DNA of 37,939 nucleotides from Candidatus Hermodarchaeota archaeon (lineage in GTDB: Archaea; Asgardarchaeota; Lokiarchaeia; Sigyniarchaeales; SOKP01), in the NCBI GenBank assembly GCA_048885925.1, contig JBHLLG010000021.1, positions 7,537 to 45,475 of the forward strand, written 5' to 3'. The notes beneath the pieces were generated by a model. It saw only the letters and a program-made list of their open reading frames with translations, was not told the DNA's origin and searched no databases. Made by a program: the position numbers and the translations under genes. Positions 4,949 to 37,939 of this stretch are shown here, piece after piece. Within the stretch, counting starts at the first letter, position 1; each line of letters opens with the position of its first letter.

Positions 4949-4966
4949 TTAGAATATAGGATTTAA

Positions 4967-5545
4967 TTATAATATTTTATCATACGCAAGCTCATGAAAT
5001 TCTAATATCTTTTTAACCATCTTCTTAAAACTGTATAAAATGTTAGTATTTTCTTTAGAAGATGTCCTGATAAAATCGCTTTCATTGTGATTTTTTAAAA
5101 ATTGCACGATAATCAAATCATCAATTTTATGTTTTTTAGCTTCCGTTTGAACTAAATCAAGTTTAGTGCCAAGTATAATCTTAGGTTGATCTTGAAGATT
5201 ATGCTCCAACAATTGAGAGTACCACCAATCTAATTTGGTGAGAGTTTCTATATTTACTAATTCAAAGACTAAAAATATTCCATTCGCTCCATTAATATAA
5301 TAATTAAAAAGTCGTTTGAACTGTTCTTGCCCCCCAAAGTCCCACAAAGATAATCTAACGAGACTTTCTTTACCATCAATTATGATCGGAATGTTATATG
5401 TGTAGAAATCAATTCCAACTGTTAGCTGAGTGTTCATATCAAAAGTATCAAAACATAATCTTCGAGCTATACAGGTTTTTCCTACAGCAGCACTACCAAT
5501 CAAGCAGATTTTGAAAATATAAGTTGGTTCTTCTCTTTCAGATAT
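4967..5545 (-). CDS. Small Ras-superfamily (Rab/Roc-like) GTPase, paralog 1
   Basis: G1 GSAAVGKT, G2 TVGIDF, G3 WDFGGQE, G4 TKLD, G5 TSSK. The frame extends upstream of the track's TTG (5503) through YIFKIC to an ATA at 5543-5545 with GGTGA 7 nt upstream. Confidence 0.88.
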   Translation of the reverse strand: MSEREEPTYIFKICLIGSAAVGKTCIARRLCFDTFDMNTQLTVGIDFYTYNIPIIIDGKESLVRLSLWDFGGQEQFKRLFNYYINGANGIFLVFELVNIETLTKLDWWYSQLLEHNLQDQPKIILGTKLDLVQTEAKKHKIDDLIIVQFLKNHNESDFIRTSSKENTNILYSFKKMVKKILEFHELAYDKIL

Positions 5546-5699
5546 AGACTTCTCACCATTAAAAATAAAGATATATAATTTAAGTATTTTAAATTTTTAA
5601 TGCTATATTTTTTTTCAATTTAATAATTATAATATAAATAATTAAAGATAGTTTTTTCAATATTTGTATAATCAATTGAAAATATTAATAGAGAAATAC

Positions 5700-6284
5700 T
5701 CAAAGTATTTTTTCATACTCTAGGTTATGATAATCTATTATTTTTTTGGTCATCTCTTTAAAAATGTCTTGAATGTTAATATTATCTCTAGAAGAAGTTG
5801 TAATGAAATCTTTTTCGTCGTGGTTGTTAAGGAACTCTTTGATAATTAACTCATCAATTTTAAATTGTTTACTCTCTTGTTCAACTAAATCGAGTTTTGT
5901 GCCAATTAAAATTTTCGGGCGATCTACCATTTTATATTCTATTAACCTATCATACCACCAATCTAGATTTATAAGACTTTGCATCTGTAATAAATCAAAT
6001 ACCAAAAAGATTCCATTCGCTCCAGTTATATAATATCTAAAAAGTGATTTGAAATGTTCCTGGCCACCAAAATCCCAGATAGAGAGTTTAATTGAGGAAT
6101 TTTTTCCATTTATAACTATTGGGATATCTTGGGTATAAAAATCTATTCCAACGGTTAATTTAGTGTCTGCGTTAAATGTATTGAAACAATATCGTCGACA
6201 AACACAAGTTTTACCTACACCTCCCGCCCCTATAAGGCATATTTTAAAGATATAGCGTTGATTTTCTTCTTTTAAAATAAACAT
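5700..6284 (-). CDS. Small Ras-superfamily (Rab/Roc-like) GTPase, paralog 2
   Basis: G1 GAGGVGKT, TVGIDF, WDFGGQE, TKLD, TSSR. Confidence 0.92.
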   Translation of the reverse strand: MFILKEENQRYIFKICLIGAGGVGKTCVCRRYCFNTFNADTKLTVGIDFYTQDIPIVINGKNSSIKLSIWDFGGQEHFKSLFRYYITGANGIFLVFDLLQMQSLINLDWWYDRLIEYKMVDRPKILIGTKLDLVEQESKQFKIDELIIKEFLNNHDEKDFITTSSRDNINIQDIFKEMTKKIIDYHNLEYEKIL

Positions 6285-6493
6285 CCACCTTTGTAAATTT
6301 AGTTATTTGATTTAATTCTATGAAATTTTTATATCTTTTTTCGTTGGTTAATGCTAGTCTTAATATCATAATAATTTTAGTCTTTTTAACATTATTTGAT
6401 TGATATAAAAATATCATAAAATTGTGATTTAATTAATAAAAAGTAGTTTTTTCTATATTCTTAAAATAAACTTATATATTAAAATAGACATTC

Positions 6494-7072
6494 TCAAAGT
6501 ATTCTGTCATACTTTAGGTTATTATAATCTAGTATCTTTTTGACCATCTCTTTAAAAATGTCTTTGATGTTGATATTCTCAGCTGAAGAGGTTTTAATAA
6601 AATCCCTTTCGCCATGATTGTCAAGAATTTCCTCAATAGTTAGCTCATCAATTCCAAATTGTTTATTTTCTTCATTAATTAAATCAAGTTTGGTACCAAT
6701 CAGAATTTTGGGGCGATCTGTAATTGCATATTCAATTAACCTATCATACCACCAATCTTAATTAACAAGACTCTGCATCTGTAATAAATCAAATACCAAA
6801 AAGATTCCATTTGCTCCATTAATATAATAGCGAAAAAGCGATTTGAAACGTTTCTGACCTCCGAAATCCCAGATAATCAGTCTAATGGAAGATTTATCTC
6901 CATCTATTATAATTGGAATATCATGAGTATAGAAATCTATTCCAACAGTTAACTTAGATACTAAGTTAAATGTATTAAGACAATATCTATGATAAATACA
7001 TGTTTTTCCTGCTCCTCCTGCACCAATAAGGCATATTTTTAGGATATAGTGATAGTCTTCTTCTTTAAATAT
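6494..7072 (-). pseudogene. Small GTPase paralog 3, interrupted by in-frame TAA (absent from ORF track)
   Basis: Hand translation gives YILKICLIGAGGAGKT...TVGIDF...WDFGGQ...QMQSLVN*DWWYDRL...GTKLD...TSSA. TAA at 6758-6760 replaces a Leu codon (CTA/TTA in the paralogs); the frame is otherwise intact to TGA at 6494-6496. Confidence 0.85.
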
Positions 7073-23056: not shown

Positions 23057-23935
23057 TTAAACTTCTTTTGATATGTCTTTAATAAATTTTTCTTTACTTA
23101 CAGTGCCATATGGGAGATTTCTACGTTCGATAACTATATTTAAATTCTCTATTATTTTTTCTGCTAAGTAATTGAAATTAAAAGGAAAAGTTGGATTCAT
23201 TTGGTAATATTTCCTTAGAAAAATGTTAATTAAGTCTATCTTATGTTTTGGTTCCTCCATTTCAAAAAGTCCTGGATCTGTATCGAGAAGAGATGTACAA
23301 ATCCATGCTAAATCGTCCATATGATTACCTTCATAAGAATCTTCAAAATCAACAGCATATAAAATATCATTCGCAGCATCGTAAATGAAATCCCTCAATC
23401 TAGTATCCCCTTTACACAATACATATTTCTTTTTTGCTTTATATCTTTTTCTTACGAAATTCTTTTCATGTACTTGAGCAAGATATTCAGCAAGTCTTTC
23501 TATACTGTGAATAATCTGAGTTCTTGTCTTAGAGTCTAAACCATCCAATTCTTTTGCTGGTTTTAACTTTTCATTAATAAAATCACATAAATTCATTCCA
23601 TTGACTTTTTCAAGGATCAAGTAAGGTTTTCGGAAAAATAAAATTCTAGGAACGTTAAATTGCTGATTTCTCAATCTGGTTAATATATTTATCTCATTTG
23701 CGATATTTTTTGTCTTAAAAATCTTTATAATAAAATCATTTGGTAATTTATGAGGTTTTTTATCGAAAATAAGATTAATAACAGAATTTTTTTTGCTCGG
23801 GAGTTCTGTTATTTTGAAATTATTTCCGTGGAGTTCGGGGATTTGTTCTTTTAAATCTCTAATTAATTTGCTTTTAATTTTCTGTAGATCCATTTTCTGA
23901 TATTTAATATTAATATTGAATCTCTTATAAAGCAC
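23057..23935 (-). CDS. Protein-kinase-like (APH/RIO/Bud32-type) phosphotransferase
   Basis: IIKIF, NEINIL, VPRIL, LILEKV, catalytic-loop variant KGDTRLRDF, VDFE, DDLA; start may be the internal ATG (MDLQK). Confidence 0.75.
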   Translation of the reverse strand: MLYKRFNINIKYQKMDLQKIKSKLIRDLKEQIPELHGNNFKITELPSKKNSVINLIFDKKPHKLPNDFIIKIFKTKNIANEINILTRLRNQQFNVPRILFFRKPYLILEKVNGMNLCDFINEKLKPAKELDGLDSKTRTQIIHSIERLAEYLAQVHEKNFVRKRYKAKKKYVLCKGDTRLRDFIYDAANDILYAVDFEDSYEGNHMDDLAWICTSLLDTDPGLFEMEEPKHKIDLINIFLRKYYQMNPTFPFNFNYLAEKIIENLNIVIERRNLPYGTVSKEKFIKDISKEV

Positions 23936-28067: not shown

Positions 28068-28119
28068 TATTTGGTTTTAGTTTAATCATTCAAGAAGCTA
28101 TTTATCTAAACATAAGTGA

Positions 28120-28884
28120 TTAACTTGATGCTTTGTATTGATAGTACTGGAGATTAGTTTGTATTCCTTCTATTGCAATAGCGGCATAATATTTATCTTC
28201 AGGAAATAAATCAATTATTGTCCAGAAATTAATCTCATTCATCCGAAATATTTTACTGATTCTTCTTGTAGGATATTTTTTATCAACAAGGACGCTAAAT
28301 TCATTAAGGGGTTCTGACAATCCAGTTCCTTTGGCTTTGATGAATGCTTCTTTACGTACCCAACATGTGTAAAAGAAATGTTCTTTTTGTTTTTTAGGTA
28401 GAGAGTTCTTAATCTTTATTTCTAGGTCTGAGTAACATTTACTACCAACAAGATCACAATCGATATTTCTATTAAATTGTTGGAGATCAATACCAACTTC
28501 TTGATTACGTGCAATAGCATAAAGAGCAATATTACCTGAATGAGATGTACTAAAGAATAATGGTTTAGTGTTATAATTATATTTTAGGAATGGTTTTCCA
28601 TATTGATTATACGTAAAGACTATATTTTTTGGGTCATCATCTAAATATATACTTAAGATATGTCGAAGTATTCCCCTTGAAGCAATATGCTTATTTTTGT
28701 CTTTATTAAACCTATAACTCTCAAATTTTAATCTCTCAGCAGCTGATAAGACATTTTTGTATTTTTGAAGTTGCTTCTTAGAGATATTCAGGTTGGCTTT
28801 CCAAACATGGACTTTATTATTAAGCTGTGTCTTTGTAGGTTGTGTTTGCATCCAGATATTTTGCTCTAAAATTTTCGTGTACAT
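28120..28884 (-). CDS. sfp: Sfp-type 4'-phosphopantetheinyl transferase
   Basis: YGKP, FSTSHSG, VGIDL, WVRKEAFIKAKGTGL; starts 7 nt after the NRPS stop. Confidence 0.92.
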   Translation of the reverse strand: MYTKILEQNIWMQTQPTKTQLNNKVHVWKANLNISKKQLQKYKNVLSAAERLKFESYRFNKDKNKHIASRGILRHILSIYLDDDPKNIVFTYNQYGKPFLKYNYNTKPLFFSTSHSGNIALYAIARNQEVGIDLQQFNRNIDCDLVGSKCYSDLEIKIKNSLPKKQKEHFFYTCWVRKEAFIKAKGTGLSEPLNEFSVLVDKKYPTRRISKIFRMNEINFWTIIDLFPEDKYYAAIAIEGIQTNLQYYQYKASS

Positions 28885-28891
28885 ATATTTC

Positions 28892-31800
28892 TCACTCAGA
28901 TCTCTCCCTAATCAATTCCCTAAGCTGTTTCATGAAATTATTAGCTAATTTTTCTATAGTTGTCTTTTTGTAAATGTTATTACTATAGCACCACTCCATT
29001 TTATATTGTCGGCCGATTACTCCTGCAGTGATTTCTATTGAATATTTTCTATCTCCTAGAAGGTAGTTATCTTGCGATTTGTGAAATTCAGAGATTTTTG
29101 CGAACGGAGATTGACTTAGGAGTGCATGGTCAAATTGACCGACATAATTAAAGCAAATTTGTGCTTGAGGTGTTTTTTGTACGTGCATAGAAGTACGATA
29201 TTTATCATTTAGGTATCTTAACAAACCATAATTAAATCCATGGTGAGGAACTGCTGCGAACTGCTCTTTTATTGATAATAGATTCTCTTGAAGACTAGAA
29301 TTTGAATCGAAACTGACATAGAACGGGAAAAAAGTAGTACAACGACCAACAGTTCTGGAGAGATTCATATCATCAAATATTTGTTCTCGCCCATGTGCTA
29401 GGAGATCAAACAGAAAGGAAGATTCATGAGTCCAATCGTAAAAAGTTTTTGCCAATATAGTAAGTAGGACGTCAATAGTTCGGATCGGATATTTCTGCGG
29501 AAGTTGATTTATTAAGGAATAGGTTTCTTCACGGCTTATCATTGTGTACACGCTTTCAACCGTTTCTGCTCTTGGATTGCCTGGATAATCTGCTGGAATT
29601 GATGGAACATTATTTAAAAGCAAATTATGCCAATAATCAATTTCCTCCTCAACCTCCTCCGATTGTGCATATGCTTCTAACCTTTCACTCCAGCGTTTAA
29701 ATGCACTTGTTTTTGGTGGAAATGATATCTCCTTACCATTGAGTAATTGTTGATATCCTGTTTGAATATCTTCTAAAACAATTCGCCAAGAAAAACCATC
29801 CAAAATTAAGTGATGTCCAACCATTAGAAATATACCTTCCTCCTCTGGTCCAAAATTAATAAAGGACGTATTTAATAAAGGACCATTAGAAAAGTTCAGA
29901 CTTTGCTGGAGGTTCGCCGAGATTTCATATAATCTTTTTTCTTGAGTAATTTTTGAGAGACCTGATAAATCAATTTCAGTAAATATGTTCACATCTTCCT
30001 TACTTATTATTTCTTGCTGCCATTTGTCGTTCTTGAGGAAATATCTTGTACGGAGGCAATCATGATGCTTACATAGTTCAAGTACTACATTCTTTAATAA
30101 TATGGGATCAATTCCTGGTTTTGTATAGATTGTATGACCCTCAACCCAAAGATGAAGATTCTTTAGTGATTGTTCAAAGAACCAATACTGACCAGGTAAT
30201 AATGATACATCGCCTGTTATAGTTATTTGATCTTTTTTGTTTGATACTTTGCCTTTCTTAGCAATTTTTGCTAACTCAAATATGTTTGAATACTCAAAAA
30301 TCTGTACAGGGGCAAATCCAAGACCTGCGAGGTTTGCTCTTGCAACAGCTTGAATGGCTAATATTGAATCCCCACCATTCTCGAAAAAGTCATCATGAAT
30401 ACCTATTTCATCAATTTGAAGGATTTCACGCCAAATTTTAGCTAAAATTTTTTCATTTTTTGTCTTTGGATATACTCTTTCGGACTTATGAATATGAATA
30501 TTATTTGCCTGGGTTGATAGGGCTTTTCTATCTACTTTCCCAGTCGGAGTCAGGGGCATCTCATTTAGTATCATAAATTTAGTAGGTACCATGTAGTTTG
30601 GAAGTTTTGATTCTACATATACACGAAGATCATTATTGCTTATGCTATCCTTAATCTCTGGAACAACATAGGCAACAAGTTGCTTATTAAATTTTGATTC
30701 ACCTTCTGCAATAACTACGACGTGTTTTAGTTGAGGATGTTGGATCATGACCGCTTCAATTTCTTCTAATTCGATTCGGAATCCACGGATTTTAACTTGA
30801 AAATCTTCCCGTCCTAAAAATTCAATATCACCACTTGGTAAATATCGCCCTAAATCTCCAGTCTTGTATAGATATTCTTTATTACGAGGATGGTAAATAA
30901 ATTGAGCTTTGGTTCTTTCTTCATCTCGCCAATAACCTTTAGCAACACCAACACCCCCAATGAATAATTCACCTGGAACCCATATAGGGCAAGGTTCTAA
31001 AAAATCATTCAGTACACGGAAAAATTGATTTTTCAAAGGTTTACCGTATGGAATACTACTCCATTTGTCGTCCACATGTAATATTGGGTAAAGTATTGAC
31101 CAGATTGCTCCTTCCGTAGCACCACCTAAGCTTATTATTTGAATATCTCCTTCTTGAATTGATCTGATCTGGCTTGGTAAATTTACTGGGATCCAATCAC
31201 CACTCATTAGAATAATTCTTAGTGATGATGGTAATGTTTTCAATATTCCTTTAGTATATTCAACCAGGATCTTCATGAGCGCAGGAACAGAATTCCATAA
31301 AGTCACATTATGTCTTTTAATCATTTTGAGCCAATTTTCGGGATCAGGAGATTTACTAACATCTGGAAGTACTATAGTTCCACCAGCTGCGAGTGTTCCG
31401 AAAATATCATATACAGATAAATCAAAATTTAAAGCAGAAATCGCAAAGACTCTATCTTTATGTGTTACATCAAAACGATGGTTTATATCTTCTATAGTAT
31501 TGACAGCGCTTTGATGTGAAATCATTACGCCTTTAGGTAATCCCGTAGAACCTGAAGTAAAAATAACATATGCCAGGTCATTAGGAGATTGCATAGGTAT
31601 ATGAGATGTTTCACTAAATGAGTTTACAATTAAGTCGTCTACACATAAAATCTGTAGATTATCTTCTGGTAAGAAAATTTCTGAAATCCAAGACTGTGTA
31701 AGGACAATATTTATTTGTCCGTAATTAATCAAGTATTGAATACGCTCTTCTGGATACCAAGGATCAATAGGAAGGTAAGCTCCACCCGATTGAAGGATCC

Positions 31801-34800
31801 CAAGAACTGCGACAATTTGCTCCCAGCCTTTTTCCATAATAACGGCTATAAGTTTATTTGGTTGAGCTCCATGATTGAGAAGCCAATTTGCCACTTGATT
31901 TGCTTTTCTTCCAAGCTCACCATAAGAAAGGGTTTTTGATGATGATATGATGGCTTTTTTCGCTGGTGTTTTTTCTGCATGCTGGAAAAATTTAGTTTGA
32001 AGGAGATCATTTCCTAGGGGCATTTGGGTTGCATTTACAGAATCTTGAATCATGAGATGTTCTTTTGGAACTAACCAATGAGCGATTGTTGTCCAGTTTG
32101 AATCCCAAGCTTCCTGGCTGTTACTTAAGTAATCAAGGAGCCTACAATATGCCCTAAACATGTCATCTATGAGGGATCCCGGAAAAAATGAACCTACTAC
32201 ATCCCAATTGAATTGTAAGGAATCATTTTCTTCACGTAATTGGTGATCTATCCAGACTTGTGGAGTTTGAGTAAGACAGTTGACAATTTTCCCTATCCAA
32301 TTCAAAGGATTTTGTTTCTTGTTTAGATTTTCAGTCTCGAGAAGACTTGTAAATACAACAGGCATAGAGGCGTCATTTTGTGTACCCTTATTCCGAGATA
32401 GTTTTCTTAATACTTGAACACCATTAAAAAAGCGATGATCATAATCTTGCCAAAAATCCGCTTGCAGCCTTTTCGCAATTGATTCAAATGTATCTTCATT
32501 GGAAATTTCTACTCCCAATAATAATAATGACGTAAAATCACCGACAATATCATTGATTTCTGGATGGATCGGTATACGGTTAAAAATTGGGATGTTAATA
32601 GTAAATCTTGATGATTTACTCCATACTGATAGTATGGATGCATAAGCTGCCAATAGCACACTTGAGGGCGTTAAACCAGATTTTGCAGCCCTTGACTTTA
32701 ACTGGTTCCAGCTTTCTGAATTTAATTTGGATTCTTTTCTTGTGAAATATTGATTCATTTCATTCGGCTTTATCTTGAGTATTGGCAACTCTGGAGCGGG
32801 AGGAAGTGAGTGTAATTTATTTAACCAATAGGATCGGGACTTCTGGAAGATATCTGAATCTTGAATATTAGATAATGCCAACACATAATCTCGAAAAGAT
32901 AAACTTAATTTTGGTAATGGTTCATCGATATTTTCATAAAGAAGAGCAAGTTCATGAAGGATGATTTGTAAGCTTCTAAAATCTATCATAGAAAAATCAT
33001 AACTAAAATGGATCCTCTTCTTGTCACCATCAATAATTGAAACGCAAATATTAAATAGGGGCCATTTTCCTAAACCGAGAACTTCATATGATAACCTCTG
33101 TCTGATTTGGTTACTAGATAATTCATCACCAGTACAATCAAATACTTCTATTTTGTAGGGTGGACAGTCTTCAAGGATTATTTGATTTCCATCTGGTAAT
33201 ACTATACATCGCAACATATCATGCCGGGTTATCAGTTTGTTCCAAGCCTTTTCGAATTGTCTAATGTTCAGATACATTGTTTCAAATTCATAATAAGCCT
33301 GAGTTGGGATATTTCCCAACTCGAAAATATCATTCCGGCCAACCCAATATACTTTTTGTAGATCAGTTAATGGGAAAGGAGAATATCTATCATTGGGATT
33401 ATGACATAATTTTAAGATTTCTCCTTCCTCTAAAGGTTTCTTTGATTTGTTTATTTCTATTAGATTCGCAAGATTGGATATTGTAGGGTTTAGATAAAAA
33501 TTAAATGCTGAAAGATTCACGTTAAATTTTTCATCAATTTTAGCTAAAAGTTGAATTACTTGTAATGAATTTCCACCTAATTCAAAAAAATTGTCAAAAA
33601 TTCCAATCTGATCAATAAATAAGATTTCTGACCAGATTTCAACAAGTGATTGATCTACTTTGGTTTTTGGACGAGAATAAGAAGATGACATCCTTGGCCT
33701 TTCACGGGAAGGTTGTGGAAGCGCATTTCTGTCAACTTTTCCGTTTGGTAGCCTTGGAAAGTCTTTCATCCACACATATGTAGAAGGTATCATGTATTCC
33801 GGTAGATGGTCATTGAGATAAGAAATTACAGTTTGCTTATCTAATATTTGCTCTAAATTGTTTGCAGAAACCATATATGCTATTAATCCAGCCACTTTGT
33901 TGTTTTCATTTCTAGCTGTCACAATAGCATCCTTAACAAGGTGGTGCTGCTGTAATACTTGCTCAATTTCTCCCAGTTCTACTCTGAATCCTCTAATCTT
34001 CATTTGATTGTCAATACGGCTTACGAATTCTAAATTCCCATCACATCTGCGTTTAATTAAATCGCCAGTTTTGTATAAACGATCCAATGGATTTGGTGAA
34101 AAGGGATCTCGAATAAATTTTGCATCCGTAAGTTCAGGTTGATTTAGATATCCCCTTGCAATGCCTATTCCTCCAATGTAAAGTTCTCCAACTTCACCTG
34201 GATTTACTGGAGTTAATGTGTTATTTAACAGATGGACCCGAATATTTGAGATCGGCTGACCGATGGGCGGATTATTTTCATTAACTACACATTCAGCAAC
34301 AGTCGTACATACTGTGGATTCTGTAGGACCATAAGCATTTAGAAAACGTCGGTTTTGTCCCCAACGTTTTACAATTTCTGCTTTACATTGTTCACCTGCA
34401 GAAATTAGAGTTCGCAATTCTGGCAATTCGTCCTCTGGGAGAACTGAAAGAATTGAAGGAGGTAAGGTTACAATGTTTATCTTTTGTTCTTTAAGTATAC
34501 CGATAACACCGGATCCTTTTTGAAGCATGTACTCAACTGGCACATACAAAATTGCACCAGCAATTAATGTAGTGAATATTTCTGAAACCGAAGCATCGAA
34601 GCTGAGAGAAGAAAATTGAAGAACTTTATCGTTGGGCTTAATATCAAAGATCTTTATCTGTTCTCTTACTAAGTTGCTTAAACCTTTATGTTCAATCATT
34701 ACGCCTTTTGGAGTTCCAGTAGAGCCTGATGTGTAAATTATGTAAGCTAAATTATTAGGCATCGAATTACTAACTGGATTTGAAGAATTCTCCTTTGAAA

Positions 34801-35275
34801 TTAATTCCGATTCGCCATTAATTGATATTATTTCAACATCACCTTGATTTGGAATTTTATCCGATAATTCATCCTTTGTCAATATTATTTTCACTTGGGA
34901 ATCATCAATCATAAATGAAATTCGACTATAAGGATATGAAGGATCTAATGGTAAATAAGCTCCTCCAGCCTTTAGAATTCCCAGAATACTTACTATCATA
35001 TCTATTGACCGGTCAATAAAAATACCAACGATTATTTCTGGGCCAACTCCTTTTGCTTGGAGATAATGTGCTAATTGATTAGCTTTAAGGTTTAGATCAA
35101 AATAACTTATCTGATCGATTTCACAACATAATGCAACATTATCTGGTTTAGATTCGGCTACTATTTCGAACAACTCGTGTACACAATAGTTAATTTGTAG
35201 ACTTTTTTTCTGTTCATCGCTATGCCTTATACCTTCTTGAGATATATTGTTTGATCCAAGATTAGTTATTTTCAT
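28892..35275 (-). CDS. Two-module nonribosomal peptide synthetase A-T-Cy-A-T-E(like)
   Basis: A1 YTSGSTGTPKG/NAYGPTE/YKTGD; T1 FFELGGNSL; Cy FPLTDLQKVYWVGR, DFSMID, PVVFTS, QTPQVWIDHQ; A2 FTSGSTGLPKG, SLGGATE; T2 FFENGGDSI; terminal HHLILDGFSW, HGRE, RTVG, VPHHG, FNYVGQ. Confidence 0.95.
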   Translation of the reverse strand: MKITNLGSNNISQEGIRHSDEQKKSLQINYCVHELFEIVAESKPDNVALCCEIDQISYFDLNLKANQLAHYLQAKGVGPEIIVGIFIDRSIDMIVSILGILKAGGAYLPLDPSYPYSRISFMIDDSQVKIILTKDELSDKIPNQGDVEIISINGESELISKENSSNPVSNSMPNNLAYIIYTSGSTGTPKGVMIEHKGLSNLVREQIKIFDIKPNDKVLQFSSLSFDASVSEIFTTLIAGAILYVPVEYMLQKGSGVIGILKEQKINIVTLPPSILSVLPEDELPELRTLISAGEQCKAEIVKRWGQNRRFLNAYGPTESTVCTTVAECVVNENNPPIGQPISNIRVHLLNNTLTPVNPGEVGELYIGGIGIARGYLNQPELTDAKFIRDPFSPNPLDRLYKTGDLIKRRCDGNLEFVSRIDNQMKIRGFRVELGEIEQVLQQHHLVKDAIVTARNENNKVAGLIAYMVSANNLEQILDKQTVISYLNDHLPEYMIPSTYVWMKDFPRLPNGKVDRNALPQPSRERPRMSSSYSRPKTKVDQSLVEIWSEILFIDQIGIFDNFFELGGNSLQVIQLLAKIDEKFNVNLSAFNFYLNPTISNLANLIEINKSKKPLEEGEILKLCHNPNDRYSPFPLTDLQKVYWVGRNDIFELGNIPTQAYYEFETMYLNIRQFEKAWNKLITRHDMLRCIVLPDGNQIILEDCPPYKIEVFDCTGDELSSNQIRQRLSYEVLGLGKWPLFNICVSIIDGDKKRIHFSYDFSMIDFRSLQIILHELALLYENIDEPLPKLSLSFRDYVLALSNIQDSDIFQKSRSYWLNKLHSLPPAPELPILKIKPNEMNQYFTRKESKLNSESWNQLKSRAAKSGLTPSSVLLAAYASILSVWSKSSRFTINIPIFNRIPIHPEINDIVGDFTSLLLLGVEISNEDTFESIAKRLQADFWQDYDHRFFNGVQVLRKLSRNKGTQNDASMPVVFTSLLETENLNKKQNPLNWIGKIVNCLTQTPQVWIDHQLREENDSLQFNWDVVGSFFPGSLIDDMFRAYCRLLDYLSNSQEAWDSNWTTIAHWLVPKEHLMIQDSVNATQMPLGNDLLQTKFFQHAEKTPAKKAIISSSKTLSYGELGRKANQVANWLLNHGAQPNKLIAVIMEKGWEQIVAVLGILQSGGAYLPIDPWYPEERIQYLINYGQINIVLTQSWISEIFLPEDNLQILCVDDLIVNSFSETSHIPMQSPNDLAYVIFTSGSTGLPKGVMISHQSAVNTIEDINHRFDVTHKDRVFAISALNFDLSVYDIFGTLAAGGTIVLPDVSKSPDPENWLKMIKRHNVTLWNSVPALMKILVEYTKGILKTLPSSLRIILMSGDWIPVNLPSQIRSIQEGDIQIISLGGATEGAIWSILYPILHVDDKWSSIPYGKPLKNQFFRVLNDFLEPCPIWVPGELFIGGVGVAKGYWRDEERTKAQFIYHPRNKEYLYKTGDLGRYLPSGDIEFLGREDFQVKIRGFRIELEEIEAVMIQHPQLKHVVVIAEGESKFNKQLVAYVVPEIKDSISNNDLRVYVESKLPNYMVPTKFMILNEMPLTPTGKVDRKALSTQANNIHIHKSERVYPKTKNEKILAKIWREILQIDEIGIHDDFFENGGDSILAIQAVARANLAGLGFAPVQIFEYSNIFELAKIAKKGKVSNKKDQITITGDVSLLPGQYWFFEQSLKNLHLWVEGHTIYTKPGIDPILLKNVVLELCKHHDCLRTRYFLKNDKWQQEIISKEDVNIFTEIDLSGLSKITQEKRLYEISANLQQSLNFSNGPLLNTSFINFGPEEEGIFLMVGHHLILDGFSWRIVLEDIQTGYQQLLNGKEISFPPKTSAFKRWSERLEAYAQSEEVEEEIDYWHNLLLNNVPSIPADYPGNPRAETVESVYTMISREETYSLINQLPQKYPIRTIDVLLTILAKTFYDWTHESSFLFDLLAHGREQIFDDMNLSRTVGRCTTFFPFYVSFDSNSSLQENLLSIKEQFAAVPHHGFNYGLLRYLNDKYRTSMHVQKTPQAQICFNYVGQFDHALLSQSPFAKISEFHKSQDNYLLGDRKYSIEITAGVIGRQYKMEWCYSNNIYKKTTIEKLANNFMKQLRELIRERSE

Positions 35276-35447
35276 TTTTTCAACTCTATATTTTGTTTTT
35301 AATTTTTTGTCTTTTCTTTAAATGATGTCATGATACCTGTTTATATGTAAAAAATAAAAAAAAGATATATAGAATGGAGGAATAGTGATTTAGGTGTGGT
35401 CATTCGATAAACCTTTTATCAAAATTTTTTCCTCCTTTTTCTATATT
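35276..35447 (-). repeat. Intergenic module copy A: stem-loop + U-tract + promoter/operator + leader
   Basis: Aligns with 36233-36404; shared core GATATATAGAATGGAGGAAT..TGATTTAGGTGTGGTCATTCGA; arms ATATAGAA/GGAGGAA pair with TTCCTCC/TTCTATAT. Confidence 0.85.
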
Positions 35448-35515
35448 GTAATTTAGAGATTTCAACCCTCTTTTGATATATCTCCTTTAATTATTTTTCT
35501 AATTATTTTCTACAT

Positions 35516-36232
35516 CTAATGAAAATTTATGTTAGATATTAATGCTATCTCAAGCAAACCAAGGAAGTTATAATATGGATTAGGCCCTGTATAATCTTCA
35601 CCTACTTTAACAATGAAGCTAATTACATGAATTTTTGCTGTGTCTCCCTCTTCCCAACCGTTGTATGAATTTAGAAACTCACCTGATCCATAGCCACACA
35701 AGAAAACTGATTCGAAAGTGCCACCACCTTCCCAAACATAATAGCCCCATGGGCGATATATAATATTTCCATCCTCATCATAGTCATCAGGTCCAAGTGT
35801 ATCTAAATCTATCGTAAATTTTAATTCATAGGTAAAATCCATGACTCCTCGAAATATGTGTATAGCTTCAGGAATAGGAAGGTAAAAATTTGTAACATGG
35901 AATGGAGCATTTTTTACATGCATTTTGACGGTAATTAGCAATATATTATTTTCAAGTTCTCTTTCAAGCACAGAACCTTTAGGATCATAGTCCAATGCGG
36001 AAACCCAATGCGGTATTGTTGGATCATCCAGAAAAGACCATATAATTAGCACCTTTTCATAATCTGGCATTCCTCCCATTGGATCTCGTACAACAGGAGC
36101 TAACCAATCCTCTATTGGTCTTTTATTTATTTTTCCTTTTCCGCTATACGCAATAGCTGCAGGGATGAAACTGAAAATGACAGTTAATATTATTACCACT
36201 AATACTAAATTTTTTATTTCCGATCTTTTCAT
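35516..36232 (-). CDS. Secreted protein of unknown function
   Basis: Signal peptide ending IFSFIPAAIA; beta-rich, aromatic body; no family recognised. Confidence 0.75.
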   Translation of the reverse strand: MKRSEIKNLVLVVIILTVIFSFIPAAIAYSGKGKINKRPIEDWLAPVVRDPMGGMPDYEKVLIIWSFLDDPTIPHWVSALDYDPKGSVLERELENNILLITVKMHVKNAPFHVTNFYLPIPEAIHIFRGVMDFTYELKFTIDLDTLGPDDYDEDGNIIYRPWGYYVWEGGGTFESVFLCGYGSGEFLNSYNGWEEGDTAKIHVISFIVKVGEDYTGPNPYYNFLGLLEIALISNINFH

Positions 36233-36404
36233 TTTTATATCAACTCTTAATTTTTTTTTTAAATTTTTGTTTTTTCTTTATTGTCATGGCACATATTTAC
36301 ACATTAAAAAATAAAAAAAAGGATATATAGAATGGAGGAATGATGATTTAGGTGTGGTCATTCGAGAAGCCATTTATCTAAACACTTTCCCCTATTTCTA
36401 TATT
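36233..36404 (-). repeat. Intergenic module copy B
   Basis: Same core and pairing arms as copy A. Confidence 0.85.
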
Positions 36405-36448
36405 TTTTAAAAACTAAATTTCATTGAGCAACCATCATACAATATTGT

Positions 36449-37039
36449 TTATTCTACAATTAAAGTATGTTCATAACTATATACAGAACCTGGATCTGGC
36501 CATTGAGGTCCATACCAAAATTCAGGACCGTCGTAATTTATAAATATTCTCCATCCTTTTTCTCTCGGATCCTCACCATAGAGTTTTTTAATCAACAATT
36601 CGCATTTTACTATATGTTCTCCCTTTTCAAAGAAGTTTGGTTCAAAAAATTGATACCAAATCCAAAGATGGAAATTATACGTGATAGGTTCACCAGTTTC
36701 AGGGTGGATATCCTCAATATCTTTAAATAAAATATGACATCTACGTAGTTTAACCTCTTTACCATCTATAGTAAGCGTCTCTTTAAAAGGTGGTCTGGTA
36801 TTCCAACCCTCATCTAGTTCTAACGGTATTGCTAAACCCCATCCAATTCTATAATAACTTTCTTTTGAACCATCAATAGTCCTTTCTTGAACGAAAGCTC
36901 CATTTCCTATCCATTGGTCTCCAAAAATTGGTCCTAAAAATGGAGGGATGCCTGCATTAACTGTGGATATAAAGCTGAAAATGAGAATTCCTACTGTAGC
37001 ACTCAAAGTTAATTTTGAAAAAAGTCTTGATTTATTCAC
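36449..37039 (-). CDS. Secreted protein of unknown function
   Basis: GTG start after the same GAGTTGATATAAAA leader; signal peptide ending IFSFISTVNA. Confidence 0.75.
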   Translation of the reverse strand: MNKSRLFSKLTLSATVGILIFSFISTVNAGIPPFLGPIFGDQWIGNGAFVQERTIDGSKESYYRIGWGLAIPLELDEGWNTRPPFKETLTIDGKEVKLRRCHILFKDIEDIHPETGEPITYNFHLWIWYQFFEPNFFEKGEHIVKCELLIKKLYGEDPREKGWRIFINYDGPEFWYGPQWPDPGSVYSYEHTLIVE

Positions 37040-37105
37040 TTTTATATCAACTCTAAATTTTTTTTAAATTTTTTTTTATTTCTTACGGTATTATGGCGCT
37101 TTTAA
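37040..37105 (-). repeat. Intergenic module copy C (promoter/leader part only, no stem-loop)
   Basis: TTTTATATCAACTCT, T-tracts and TTATGGCGC match the gene-proximal half of copies A and B. Confidence 0.7.
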
Positions 37106-37363
37106 TTAAATAAACAAAATTTTTACTTATTATTCGATCGTGCCATAACATTTTAAAAATAGAACGTTTCATATATAAATTTTATGATCAAGTTTTTATA
37201 TTAATAATAAGTATATATAATGTAGAAGTAAGGATTAATAACGTTTTTTGAAGTCTTTCTTAAAGAATTTTCAAGATAATTATGATAAAGTGATGTTAGA
37301 AAGAATAATTAAGATATAAGTTAAAATCTAATATTTAGCTTTAATAGGGGTCGAAAAAGCCGA

Positions 37364-37939
37364 TTGAATGAAAAAAATAGTAGTACTCTTGCAACAGAAT
37401 GGAATCAATTGATAGTAAAGCATCCATTGCGATTTGATATTTGGGCTATCCTTGAACTTCATACTCAATTGAATGTAACTCAAATTACTCATTACGTAGA
37501 ACAAAGTAAATCTACGGTTGCTAGACATCTTAAATTAATGGAAAAAGATGGGCTTCTTATATCAAGGATAGCAAAAGCAGATGTGAAAGGAAGGATACCA
37601 CCGAAGATCTATCAAATCAATCCAAGATTTCTAGAAAAGGAGTTAGAATTAGAAAAAAGGTTTAATTCAGAAGAACCTCAAAATCTTCAACAATTTTACA
37701 AAAAGGAGGTTACGAATTATCGAAAAATGAGTTATAATATAAAAAAACTGTTAAATTATCTAGATCCATTATTAGATCTTCTTGAAGAGCAGCTAGGGGA
37801 TATTAAAGCGGCTAAAAGTACCTATGATGAATTCTTATCATATATAGATGAACCAGTTTATCTCTATTTTGACAAAAAGCGGTCCAGAAAACTCATAGAT
37901 TTACATTCAGAATATGTTTTAAAATTACATAAGCTAGCT
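37364..37939 (+). CDS. ArsR-like winged-helix transcriptional regulator (runs off window end; absent from ORF track)
   Basis: TTG at 37364 opens MNEKN...HPLRFDIWAILE...LNVTQITHYVEQSKSTVARHLKLMEKDGLL; no stop found before the window end. Confidence 0.85.
   Translation, partial: MNEKNSSTLATEWNQLIVKHPLRFDIWAILELHTQLNVTQITHYVEQSKSTVARHLKLMEKDGLLISRIAKADVKGRIPPKIYQINPRFLEKELELEKRFNSEEPQNLQQFYKKEVTNYRKMSYNIKKLLNYLDPLLDLLEEQLGDIKAAKSTYDEFLSYIDEPVYLYFDKKRSRKLIDLHSEYVLKLHKLA

Follow-up and report, generated by a model that had tools for sequence, protein, structure and literature searches.

Two ~80-nt hairpins, each followed by a long T tract, in a 37,939-nt stretch of DNA from a Candidatus Hermodarchaeota archaeon (the whole of the stretch analysed, hereafter the window) belong to a lineage-specific family of hairpin-plus-T-run elements found in one family of Lokiarchaeia-type archaea. 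The element is found predominantly behind co-oriented genes, most of them from a single family of exported proteins, and is interpreted, with moderate confidence, as a conserved 3'-end module that terminates and stabilises transcripts and closes the transcription units of chiefly exported-protein genes. Literature searches found no published description of the element.

Hairpins and genes of the window

The two hairpins (copy A, 35367..35446; copy B, 36325..36403; both on the minus strand) lie exactly where a previous interpretation of the same DNA, made from the letters alone (hereafter the sequence-only reading), had placed them, and the long T tract described there takes the form T8-A-T6 in both cases. 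For copy A this tract (35349..35363, minus strand) lies directly 3' of the hairpin and is the predicted termination site; for copy B it occupies 36306..36320 on the same strand. Covariance-model matches cover 35350-35466 (copy A, 125.5 bits) and 36308-36420 (copy B, 117.1 bits). In both copies the outer stem (P1) is formed by ATATAGAA/TTCTATAT and the second stem (P2) by GGAGGAA/TTCCTCC (GGGGAA in copy B), enclosing an inner part of ~45 nt, which in copy A is folded into the inner stems P3 and P4. The interval from the stop codon of the 238-aa gene to hairpin A (35447..35515, minus strand) is a conserved spacer containing the motif GAGGGTTGAAATCTCTAAAT (35451-35470), which is common to many copies of the family. 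The sense-strand RNA of copy A folds at -19.9 kcal/mol (z = -3.76) and that of copy B at -18.0 kcal/mol (z = -1.50), with opposite-strand folds of -23.8 and -23.9 kcal/mol, respectively.

Copies A and B are 84-87% identical (84% over 91 nt), and their likeness spans the whole intergenic region of ~190 nt, including the promoter-like block and the next start codon (85% column identity). A further remnant copy, reduced to the inner stems and then T6 (28072..28112, minus strand; 80% identical to copy B; nhmmer E = 0.039), lies directly 3' of the stop codon of a 4'-phosphopantetheinyl transferase (PPTase) gene. The previous count of two copies was therefore correct for A and B, but missed both this remnant and the extension of the likeness past the hairpin.

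On the minus strand, the order of features is promoter, 196-aa gene, element, promoter, 238-aa gene, element, promoter, NRPS gene, PPTase gene and element remnant. The genes for the 196-aa (36449..37039) and 238-aa (35516..36232) exported proteins, both on the minus strand, were assigned to one family, cl0 (profile E = 3.8e-16 and 2.2e-79), and neither product had a match in Pfam. Copy B lies 3' of the former and copy A 3' of the latter, which bears out the previous placement of the element after both secreted-protein genes, as does its absence before the first unit, where neither nhmmer nor the covariance model gave a match. A 28-nt A/T-rich promoter-like block also precedes this first gene, which is without a hairpin. 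The corresponding block before the NRPS gene, with an AGAGTTGA leader, lies at 35276..35330 (minus strand), and its paralogues lie at 36233-36290 and 37040-37095.

What had been termed an NRPS array is, based on Pfam, one bimodular NRPS gene (A-T-C-A-T-C; 28892..35275, minus strand, downstream of copy A) and one PPTase gene (28120..28884, minus strand; ACPS and AASDHPPT_N), after which the remnant copy follows. The 2127-aa NRPS protein has two each of the AMP-binding, PP-binding and Condensation domains. A divergent ArsR/MarR-type HTH gene (37364..37939, plus strand; HTH_5 and MarR), cut by the contig end, is likely the regulator of the unit, and the divergent HTH arrangement recurs at other copies of the element. 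The NRPS gene has a G+C content of ~35%, compared to 28-33% in its surroundings, and the first 600 aa of its product were without a match in all 39 other genomes of the genus (E ≤ 1e-50), suggesting that the NRPS-PPTase pair may have been acquired horizontally. The NRPS gene shares its promoter-like block with both cl0 genes, and an element remnant is found 3' of the PPTase gene, an arrangement from which we infer that the foreign pair took the place of the coding portion of a third cl0-type unit. The NRPS-PPTase genes sit between element modules, and among the 40 genomes of the genus the NRPS occurs only in the source genome.

Distribution of the element

The source genome contains seven full copies on five contigs (nhmmer E = 2.7e-31 to 1.9e-26) and one remnant. 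A covariance model built from the seven full copies matched 23 of the 39 other genomes of the genus and, in a wider sample of 120 genomes of the order, 41 of the 100 other genomes of the same family, distributed over three genera (g1, 22/34; g14, 18/35; g16, 1/7) with 1-8 copies per genome. Matches were absent from the remaining genera and from the genomes of the sister families (0/14, 0/1 and 0/4; 0/19 in total). The genomes, one per species, are mutually related, and the loci examined are those found by the model. An exact 22-base core was present in 26 stretches of species-representative genomes, 25 from Promethearchaeota/Promethearchaeia MAGs and one from a Hodarchaeota, and two core patterns had no exact match among viral contigs. 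The model scan thus returned the further copies in Lokiarchaeia-type genomes that the sequence-only reading had proposed looking for, and its fallback, that without such copies the pair would be a neutral remnant of a local duplication, does not hold.

A search of 34800-37939 against Rfam in permissive mode gave four matches of 17.9-23.6 bits (E = 1.2-7.5), compared to gathering scores of 51.8-100; the element corresponds to no Rfam family. Alignment of 111 copies from 94 stretches to the covariance model distinguished two subtypes that differ in the inner stems, the second with a different loop, as well as a few copies with a short or unrelated inner part that nonetheless retain the outer stems and T tract.

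Position, orientation and T tract

Based on crude ORF calls (≥60 aa, overlaps removed), 99 of the 111 copies have a co-oriented ORF upstream, with a stop codon ≤60 nt from the model start in 84 of these 99 cases (median, 33 nt); the hairpin proper starts ~20 nt beyond the model start. The upstream ORF is on the opposite strand for six copies, and six of the 111 had ≤290 nt of upstream sequence for analysis. Downstream genes are either co-oriented (n = 74) or convergent (n = 34), which indicates that the element is not a 5' leader. The longest T run was ≥7 in 104 of the 111 copies. In the two relatives examined, cl0 and a beta-lactamase-like gene form an operon with one element after the second gene and none between, so that the element closes transcription units and not genes. 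Of the options in the sequence-only reading, that of a terminator is consistent with the position after co-oriented stops, the near-invariant T tract and the placement at an operon end, and its interpretation as a whole was in part supported. Four of the six copies with an opposite-strand ORF upstream have both neighbouring genes on the opposite strand, which counts against a terminator.

T runs of ≥6 were present ≤100 nt from the stop codon for 1234 of the 3160 crude genes in the source genome, mostly right after the stop codon. Hairpins before T tracts are exceptional in this genome: among the best 40 folds of 1614 windows upstream of T tracts were three of the seven element copies (fold stability: top 1% for two copies, 1st-5th percentile for the third), and the other strong folders among these 40 were mostly coding sequence or tRNA. 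The source genome encodes aCPSF1 (TIGR03675 match, 888.7 bits; cut-off, 580.2). A bacterial-type intrinsic terminator, with a short G+C-rich stem and a loop of 3-8 nt, was rejected for a stem-loop of ~80 nt with an A/T-rich outer stem; a scan for such terminators matched neither copy and identified five sites in the region, compared to 7.8 expected. Antisense T runs of ≥5 occurred in 22 of 27 convergent and 42 of 74 tandem contexts, but as the copies are non-independent and the Mann-Whitney p ranges from 0.07 to 0.17, the idea of a bidirectional terminator is a trend only. Three metatranscriptome runs of the same study placed no reads on 34900-37300.

Structure and covariation

Across the alignment, the model structure was paired in 89.1% of cells (P1 arms, 91.7%; P2 arms, 90.8%). 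Two-sided changes affected 16 of 26 pairs (49 cells), compared to 8-14 pairs and 21-49 cells in slid control structures; the covariation score was 0.100 (best control, 0.073), and 0 of 500 column shuffles reached the observed values. Because the controls overlap with the observed values and the alignment itself was fitted to the model, the covariation is considered weak, and the stems are preserved mostly by sequence invariance.

Compared to shuffles, the hairpin had a median z of -4.36 in the sense and -5.04 in the antisense direction, the antisense fold being more stable in 96 of the 111 copies, and an earlier 64-copy alignment contained G-U pairs in 62 cells and A-C oppositions in 49 cells. 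With the antisense fold often the more stable and G-U pairs about as frequent as A-C oppositions, folding is silent on strand, and the strand on which the element acts would be indicated by the T tract and gene orientation alone. The G-U pair that the sequence-only reading had noted in copy B is real, but the minus-strand polarity argued from it is weak family-wide. No extra hairpin was predicted in the spacer by RNAalifold. Small ORFs were also rejected as the conserved feature; an SD-like GGAG with TTG/GTG in the spacer, loop frames starting with ATG and an antisense frame from AGAATGGAGG are, when read by eye, broken by 1-nt indels or stops in other copies, and subtype 2 is without the ATG. 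A K-turn or C/D-box loop was rejected by eye.

Conservation of the element

Within the source genome, the elements are 76-90% identical, and the proteins encoded upstream have no BLAST hit to each other or ≤31% identity. For all pairs, element identity reaches a plateau of ~75-78% whenever protein identity is <60%, and the similarity of the element is decoupled from that of the genes. Among 116 well-occupied columns, 23 were conserved at ≥95%, 60 at ≥85% and 24 at <70%, conservation being highest in the 3' arm and the sequence of the apical loop.

In ten orthologous pairs, to which two loci contribute twice and for which the column classes were taken from other copies, 43 of 500 conserved columns (8.6%) and 30 of 149 variable columns (20.1%) differed, and the third codon positions of the upstream genes differed by a mean of 16.5%. 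Conserved columns thus diverge at roughly half the rate of third codon positions, suggesting moderate purifying selection on the element in place, not strong constraint. In a tree of the copies, noisy given its ~150 alignment columns, copies grouped by locus and not by genome. Median element identity was 72% between genera and 73% within genera, and some near-consensus copies in different genera were up to 95-97% identical with flanks at ~40%. This identity across genera with unrelated flanks, together with one independent gain, would fit an element that spreads as well as one that is conserved.

Upstream genes and the cl0 family

A majority of the upstream genes (67 of 99) form one BLAST cluster, cl0, which includes the 196-aa and 238-aa genes of the window. 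The cl0 proteins are a fast-evolving exported family with an N-terminal hydrophobic signal (judged by eye) and no Pfam match. An AlphaFold model of the 238-aa protein is beta-rich (pLDDT = 89.9), with no match in the PDB at E ≤ 0.001 using Foldseek and a best Z of 5.5, within the noise range, using VIA-align wide. The other 13 upstream clusters include beta-lactamase-like, pectate-lyase-like, NosD/beta-helix, PKD and DUF998 proteins, as well as three that are cytoplasmic (AlaX-like, PNP_UDP_1 and URO-D). Judged by eye from their N-termini, the upstream proteins appear to be mostly exported or membrane proteins.

All three cl0 genes of the source genome are followed by the element. Across the 40 genomes of the genus, cl0 and the element occur together in 19, the element alone in five, cl0 alone in one and neither in 15, such that the element is present in 19 of the 20 genomes with cl0 and missing from 15 of the 20 without it, a co-occurrence that is no formal test because these genomes are mutually related. 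In at least three cases, a 3'-end remnant of cl0 persists between an unrelated gene and the element (the AlaX locus of the source genome, a 242-aa gene on contig C1 and a beta-lactamase-like gene of a relative).

Gene exchange and mobility

Several loci differ between relatives in the genes or the element that they carry. The element is present in one genome at the orthologous PNP-like locus, where five others carry a short, element-free intergenic region, and at the AlaX locus the source genome has the cl0 remnant and the element, both of which two other genomes are without. Different species carry different genes in the slot between the element and a divergent HTH/TPR gene pair, with syntenic flanks. 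Between the source genome and two genus mates, the aCPSF1 gene, a housekeeping gene, is saturated at four-fold sites (36-41% identical), whereas the 238-aa gene has 83% third-position identity to its counterpart in one of these mates. For another pair, the upstream gene is identical at 134 of 147 four-fold sites and the gene beyond the element at 36 of 75, with identity dropping from ~97% to ~80% around the element.

Signatures of transposition were sought among the 111 copies, where the best flanking 14-mer averaged 10.54, compared to 10.58 in mismatched-flank controls, indicating no target-site duplications; a 14-of-16 direct repeat at the PNP locus is inside the control range. The arms resemble the terminal inverted repeats of MITEs, yet conserved sequence runs beyond them on both sides. 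An nhmmer search of the source genome (95% complete) found only the seven copies and weak fragments, and no longer element with matching arms.

The core-site pair of attC has the consensus RYYYAAC ... GTTRRRY. It was present in one of the 111 copies, compared to 11 of 2000 random windows, which lends no support to the attC similarity that the sequence-only reading had proposed to check. Tyrosine recombinases were absent from contigs with copies, and the only two in the source genome are on contigs C51 and C76. With one element per unit in addition, the option of a recombination site of a cassette system was not supported.

Proposed function and alternatives

As a 3'-end terminator and stabiliser, which we regard as the somewhat favoured interpretation, the module would comprise the conserved spacer, the ~80-nt hairpin with its three tiers, and a tract of U8-10, behind which a second U tract often lies. 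RNA polymerase would read through the exported-protein gene or operon and the hairpin and halt in the U tract, with aCPSF1 presumably aiding. The long hairpin, then at the 3' end of the mRNA, would guard against 3'-to-5' decay and may shield the next promoter, a few tens of bases downstream. Since archaeal termination does not need a hairpin, at least in the parts of the source drawn on here (PMC8716108), the role of the hairpin is one that we infer. A U tract suffices in Archaea and T runs are common after stop codons, so that the T tract would explain termination and the hairpin would be an extra, for which protection of the mRNA 3' end and insulation of the close promoter may be the most economical role. 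That its sequence is conserved is suggestive of a specific binding partner. The module would belong chiefly to cl0 and stay in place while the genes in front are swapped, which would account for its position beside unrelated genes, here the NRPS-PPTase pair.

Part of the evidence also suits a selfish, non-autonomous mobile repeat (MITE- or SPRITE-like) whose presence at gene 3' ends is merely tolerated or reflects later co-option, with the stems as terminal inverted repeats and not an RNA structure. The element is dispersed at 1-8 copies per genome with arms that are inverted repeats, it occupies the PNP-like locus in one genome and not in five others, cross-genus copies can be 95-97% identical with flanks at ~40%, median identity is nearly the same between (72%) and within (73%) genera, and in some copies the inner part was swapped or lost with the arms retained. 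Such a repeat is nonetheless unlikely, as flanking direct repeats show no excess over controls (10.54 vs 10.58), the orientation is non-random (99 co-oriented copies vs six), the copy number is low and the 95%-complete source genome has no longer element with matching arms, and also given that conserved columns are constrained in place, copies group by locus and not by genome, and presence follows one gene family, cl0. A comparably low probability is given to a cis-regulatory 3'-UTR element or a 3'-UTR-derived sRNA, the loop and UUCCUCC arm of which would bind a protein or pair with mRNAs of an exported-protein regulon. The high conservation of the apical loop and 3' arm (23 columns at ≥95%, 60 at ≥85%), superfluous for a plain terminator, would be explained in this manner, as would the upstream genes for mostly exported or membrane proteins (N-termini by eye); however, some copies retain the outer stems and T tract with inner stems that are replaced or missing, the second subtype has another loop, the AlaX, PNP and URO-D families upstream are cytoplasmic, and neither an Rfam match nor a binding partner or target was found.

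The turnover of genes in front of the element raises the question of recombination. An attC-like site for the exchange of gene cassettes, folded as single-stranded DNA and marking cassette 3' ends, would account for slot genes that differ among species between syntenic flanks, for the recent exchange of an upstream gene and element between species (134/147 vs 36/75 four-fold sites) and for the cl0 3'-end remnants between unrelated genes and the element, and integrons have been reported as enriched in Asgard archaea (PMC9668308, in the part drawn on here). We consider it very unlikely, with the core pair in one of 111 copies (random windows, 11 of 2000), both tyrosine-recombinase genes of the source genome on other contigs, one element per two-gene operon, a separate promoter for each unit and a T tract after the hairpin; homologous recombination via the conserved flanks accounts for the exchange just as well. 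A broader and speculative proposal, which we rate as quite improbable, is that the element forms the fixed 3' boundary of an undescribed archaeal gene-slot system, framed with the divergent HTH/TPR pair, in which exported-protein genes or the NRPS-PPTase pair would be swapped by recombination at the element, either site-specific or homology-driven. That the element is a neutral leftover of a local tandem duplication can practically be dismissed: the window copies are adjacent and the duplicated stretch takes in the next promoter, but there are seven copies on five contigs and 111 across three genera, and the two upstream proteins have no significant BLAST similarity (best E = 6) beside elements that are 87% identical.

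Relation to known systems and significance

In Archaea, terminators are described as U tracts for which a hairpin is not required, with two U4 tracts as the best signal for aCPSF1 and a Lokiarchaeal aCPSF1 that behaves alike (PMC8716108, as far as the portion drawn on here extends). The element resembles these U-tract/aCPSF1 (aCPSF1/FttA) terminators in the coding-strand T run 3' of the unit, the T8-A-T6 of the window amounting to two tracts of U4 or longer. In the same portion of that source, archaeal U-tract terminators have no preceding hairpin and a sequence that is not conserved between genes (PMC8716108); the element, unlike them, keeps a hairpin of ~80 nt and a spacer across unrelated genes in three genera.

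The closest described analogue is SPRITE of Streptococcus pneumoniae, a dispersed AT-rich repeat in which a U-rich tract follows a long duplex (PMC3049150). SPRITE is concentrated near CDS 3' ends and between convergent genes, and the sections of the source used here report that target duplication was not demonstrable and no IS had matching ends (PMC3049150); its authors suggest co-option as a terminator (PMC3049150; review, PMC10969869). SPRITE is a bacterial repeat of unrelated sequence that numbers ~30 copies per genome and has, so far as these sections go, no tie to one gene family, whereas the archaeal element has 1-8 copies, tracks cl0 and is strict in orientation. REP/BIME palindromes and MITEs are likewise short, multi-copy, intergenic inverted repeats, which can stabilise the upstream mRNA or terminate transcription (PMC10969869); compared to these, as portrayed in the part of the review used, the element has few copies and a strong orientation bias and is without target-site duplications or, in its own genome, an autonomous partner. 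Though attC sites, which have conserved ends around a variable centre, are also imperfect palindromes of similar size at the 3' ends of accessory genes (PMC9668308, in part), and share with the element a cassette-like turnover of the genes in front, the element lacks core sites and a nearby integrase, and occurs once per transcription unit rather than once per gene, with a T tract and then a separate promoter behind it.

A conserved hairpin-plus-U module behind unrelated genes in three genera would be an unusual archaeal 3'-end signal, and would give a first handle on the biology of mRNA 3' ends in Asgard archaea. The element marks a small, patchy set of regulator-controlled exported-protein units whose gene content turns over between species, and one such unit in the source genome appears to have received an NRPS by horizontal transfer. 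With the covariance model, such units, as well as their operon ends, can be located in Asgard metagenome bins.

Sequence signals and likely regulators around the element

Beyond the element itself (a conserved ~80-nt hairpin and T tract at the 3' ends of transcription units), further short signals recur in its neighborhood. A motif resembling ATTTCTAAATTTA lies ~15 nt 5' of the hairpin and is repeated 11–36 nt past the T tract, as seen at element copies upstream of cl2-type genes (e.g., loci L004, L038, L114, and L118). In the source genome (G000), a 258-aa gene of cl0, the exported-protein family found upstream of most element copies, and a 476-aa beta-helix gene have in common a ~80-nt conserved upstream block, distinct from the promoter-like block (contig C38, upstream of position 23284; contig C54, upstream of 2368). 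Within this block is a palindrome-like sequence, GATCATCAATTCGATGATC, probably an operator.

Each exported-protein unit closed by the element is faced by a recurring divergent pair, consisting of an ArsR-like HTH gene (231–251 aa) and a TPR protein gene (471–512 aa), as on contig C1 of the source genome (326472–334291), at window positions 37364–37939, and at loci L186 and L187. The slot gene beside the pair varies from species to species. By analogy, the combination of the HTH/TPR pair and an exported-protein unit recalls receptor-regulator pairs adjoining secreted products.

Divergence, possible transfer, and probable acquisition

Amongst the cl0 family, divergence at codon positions 1+2 is similar to that at position 3 (e.g., identities of 90% and 90%; 88% and 83%), suggesting relaxed or diversifying selection. 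The model of the 238-aa cl0 protein (window 35516–36232) was beta-rich and confident (pLDDT 89.9); no convincing match was found in a comparison to the PDB, where the top, weak rows were hydrophobic-ligand-binding half-barrels.

The ~1.3 kb surrounding the element in L116, from a genome of genus g14, and L143, from a genome of genus g1, are mostly 70–100% identical, a likeness across assigned genera that could be due to recent transfer or a binning artefact. Elsewhere in the window, three 300-nt direct repeats (4949–5248, 5682–5981, and 6476–6775; 68–79% identity, spacing 733 and 794 nt) lie across small ORFs on the minus strand and probably represent paralogous genes in tandem.

The pair formed by the NRPS and phosphopantetheinyl transferase genes (window 28120–35275, minus strand) was detected in none of the 39 other genomes of the genus searched, and its G+C is a little above that of its surroundings. 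The promoter-like block of this pair is one also carried by the adjoining small exported-protein genes. The pair looks like a recent acquisition brought under native control signals.
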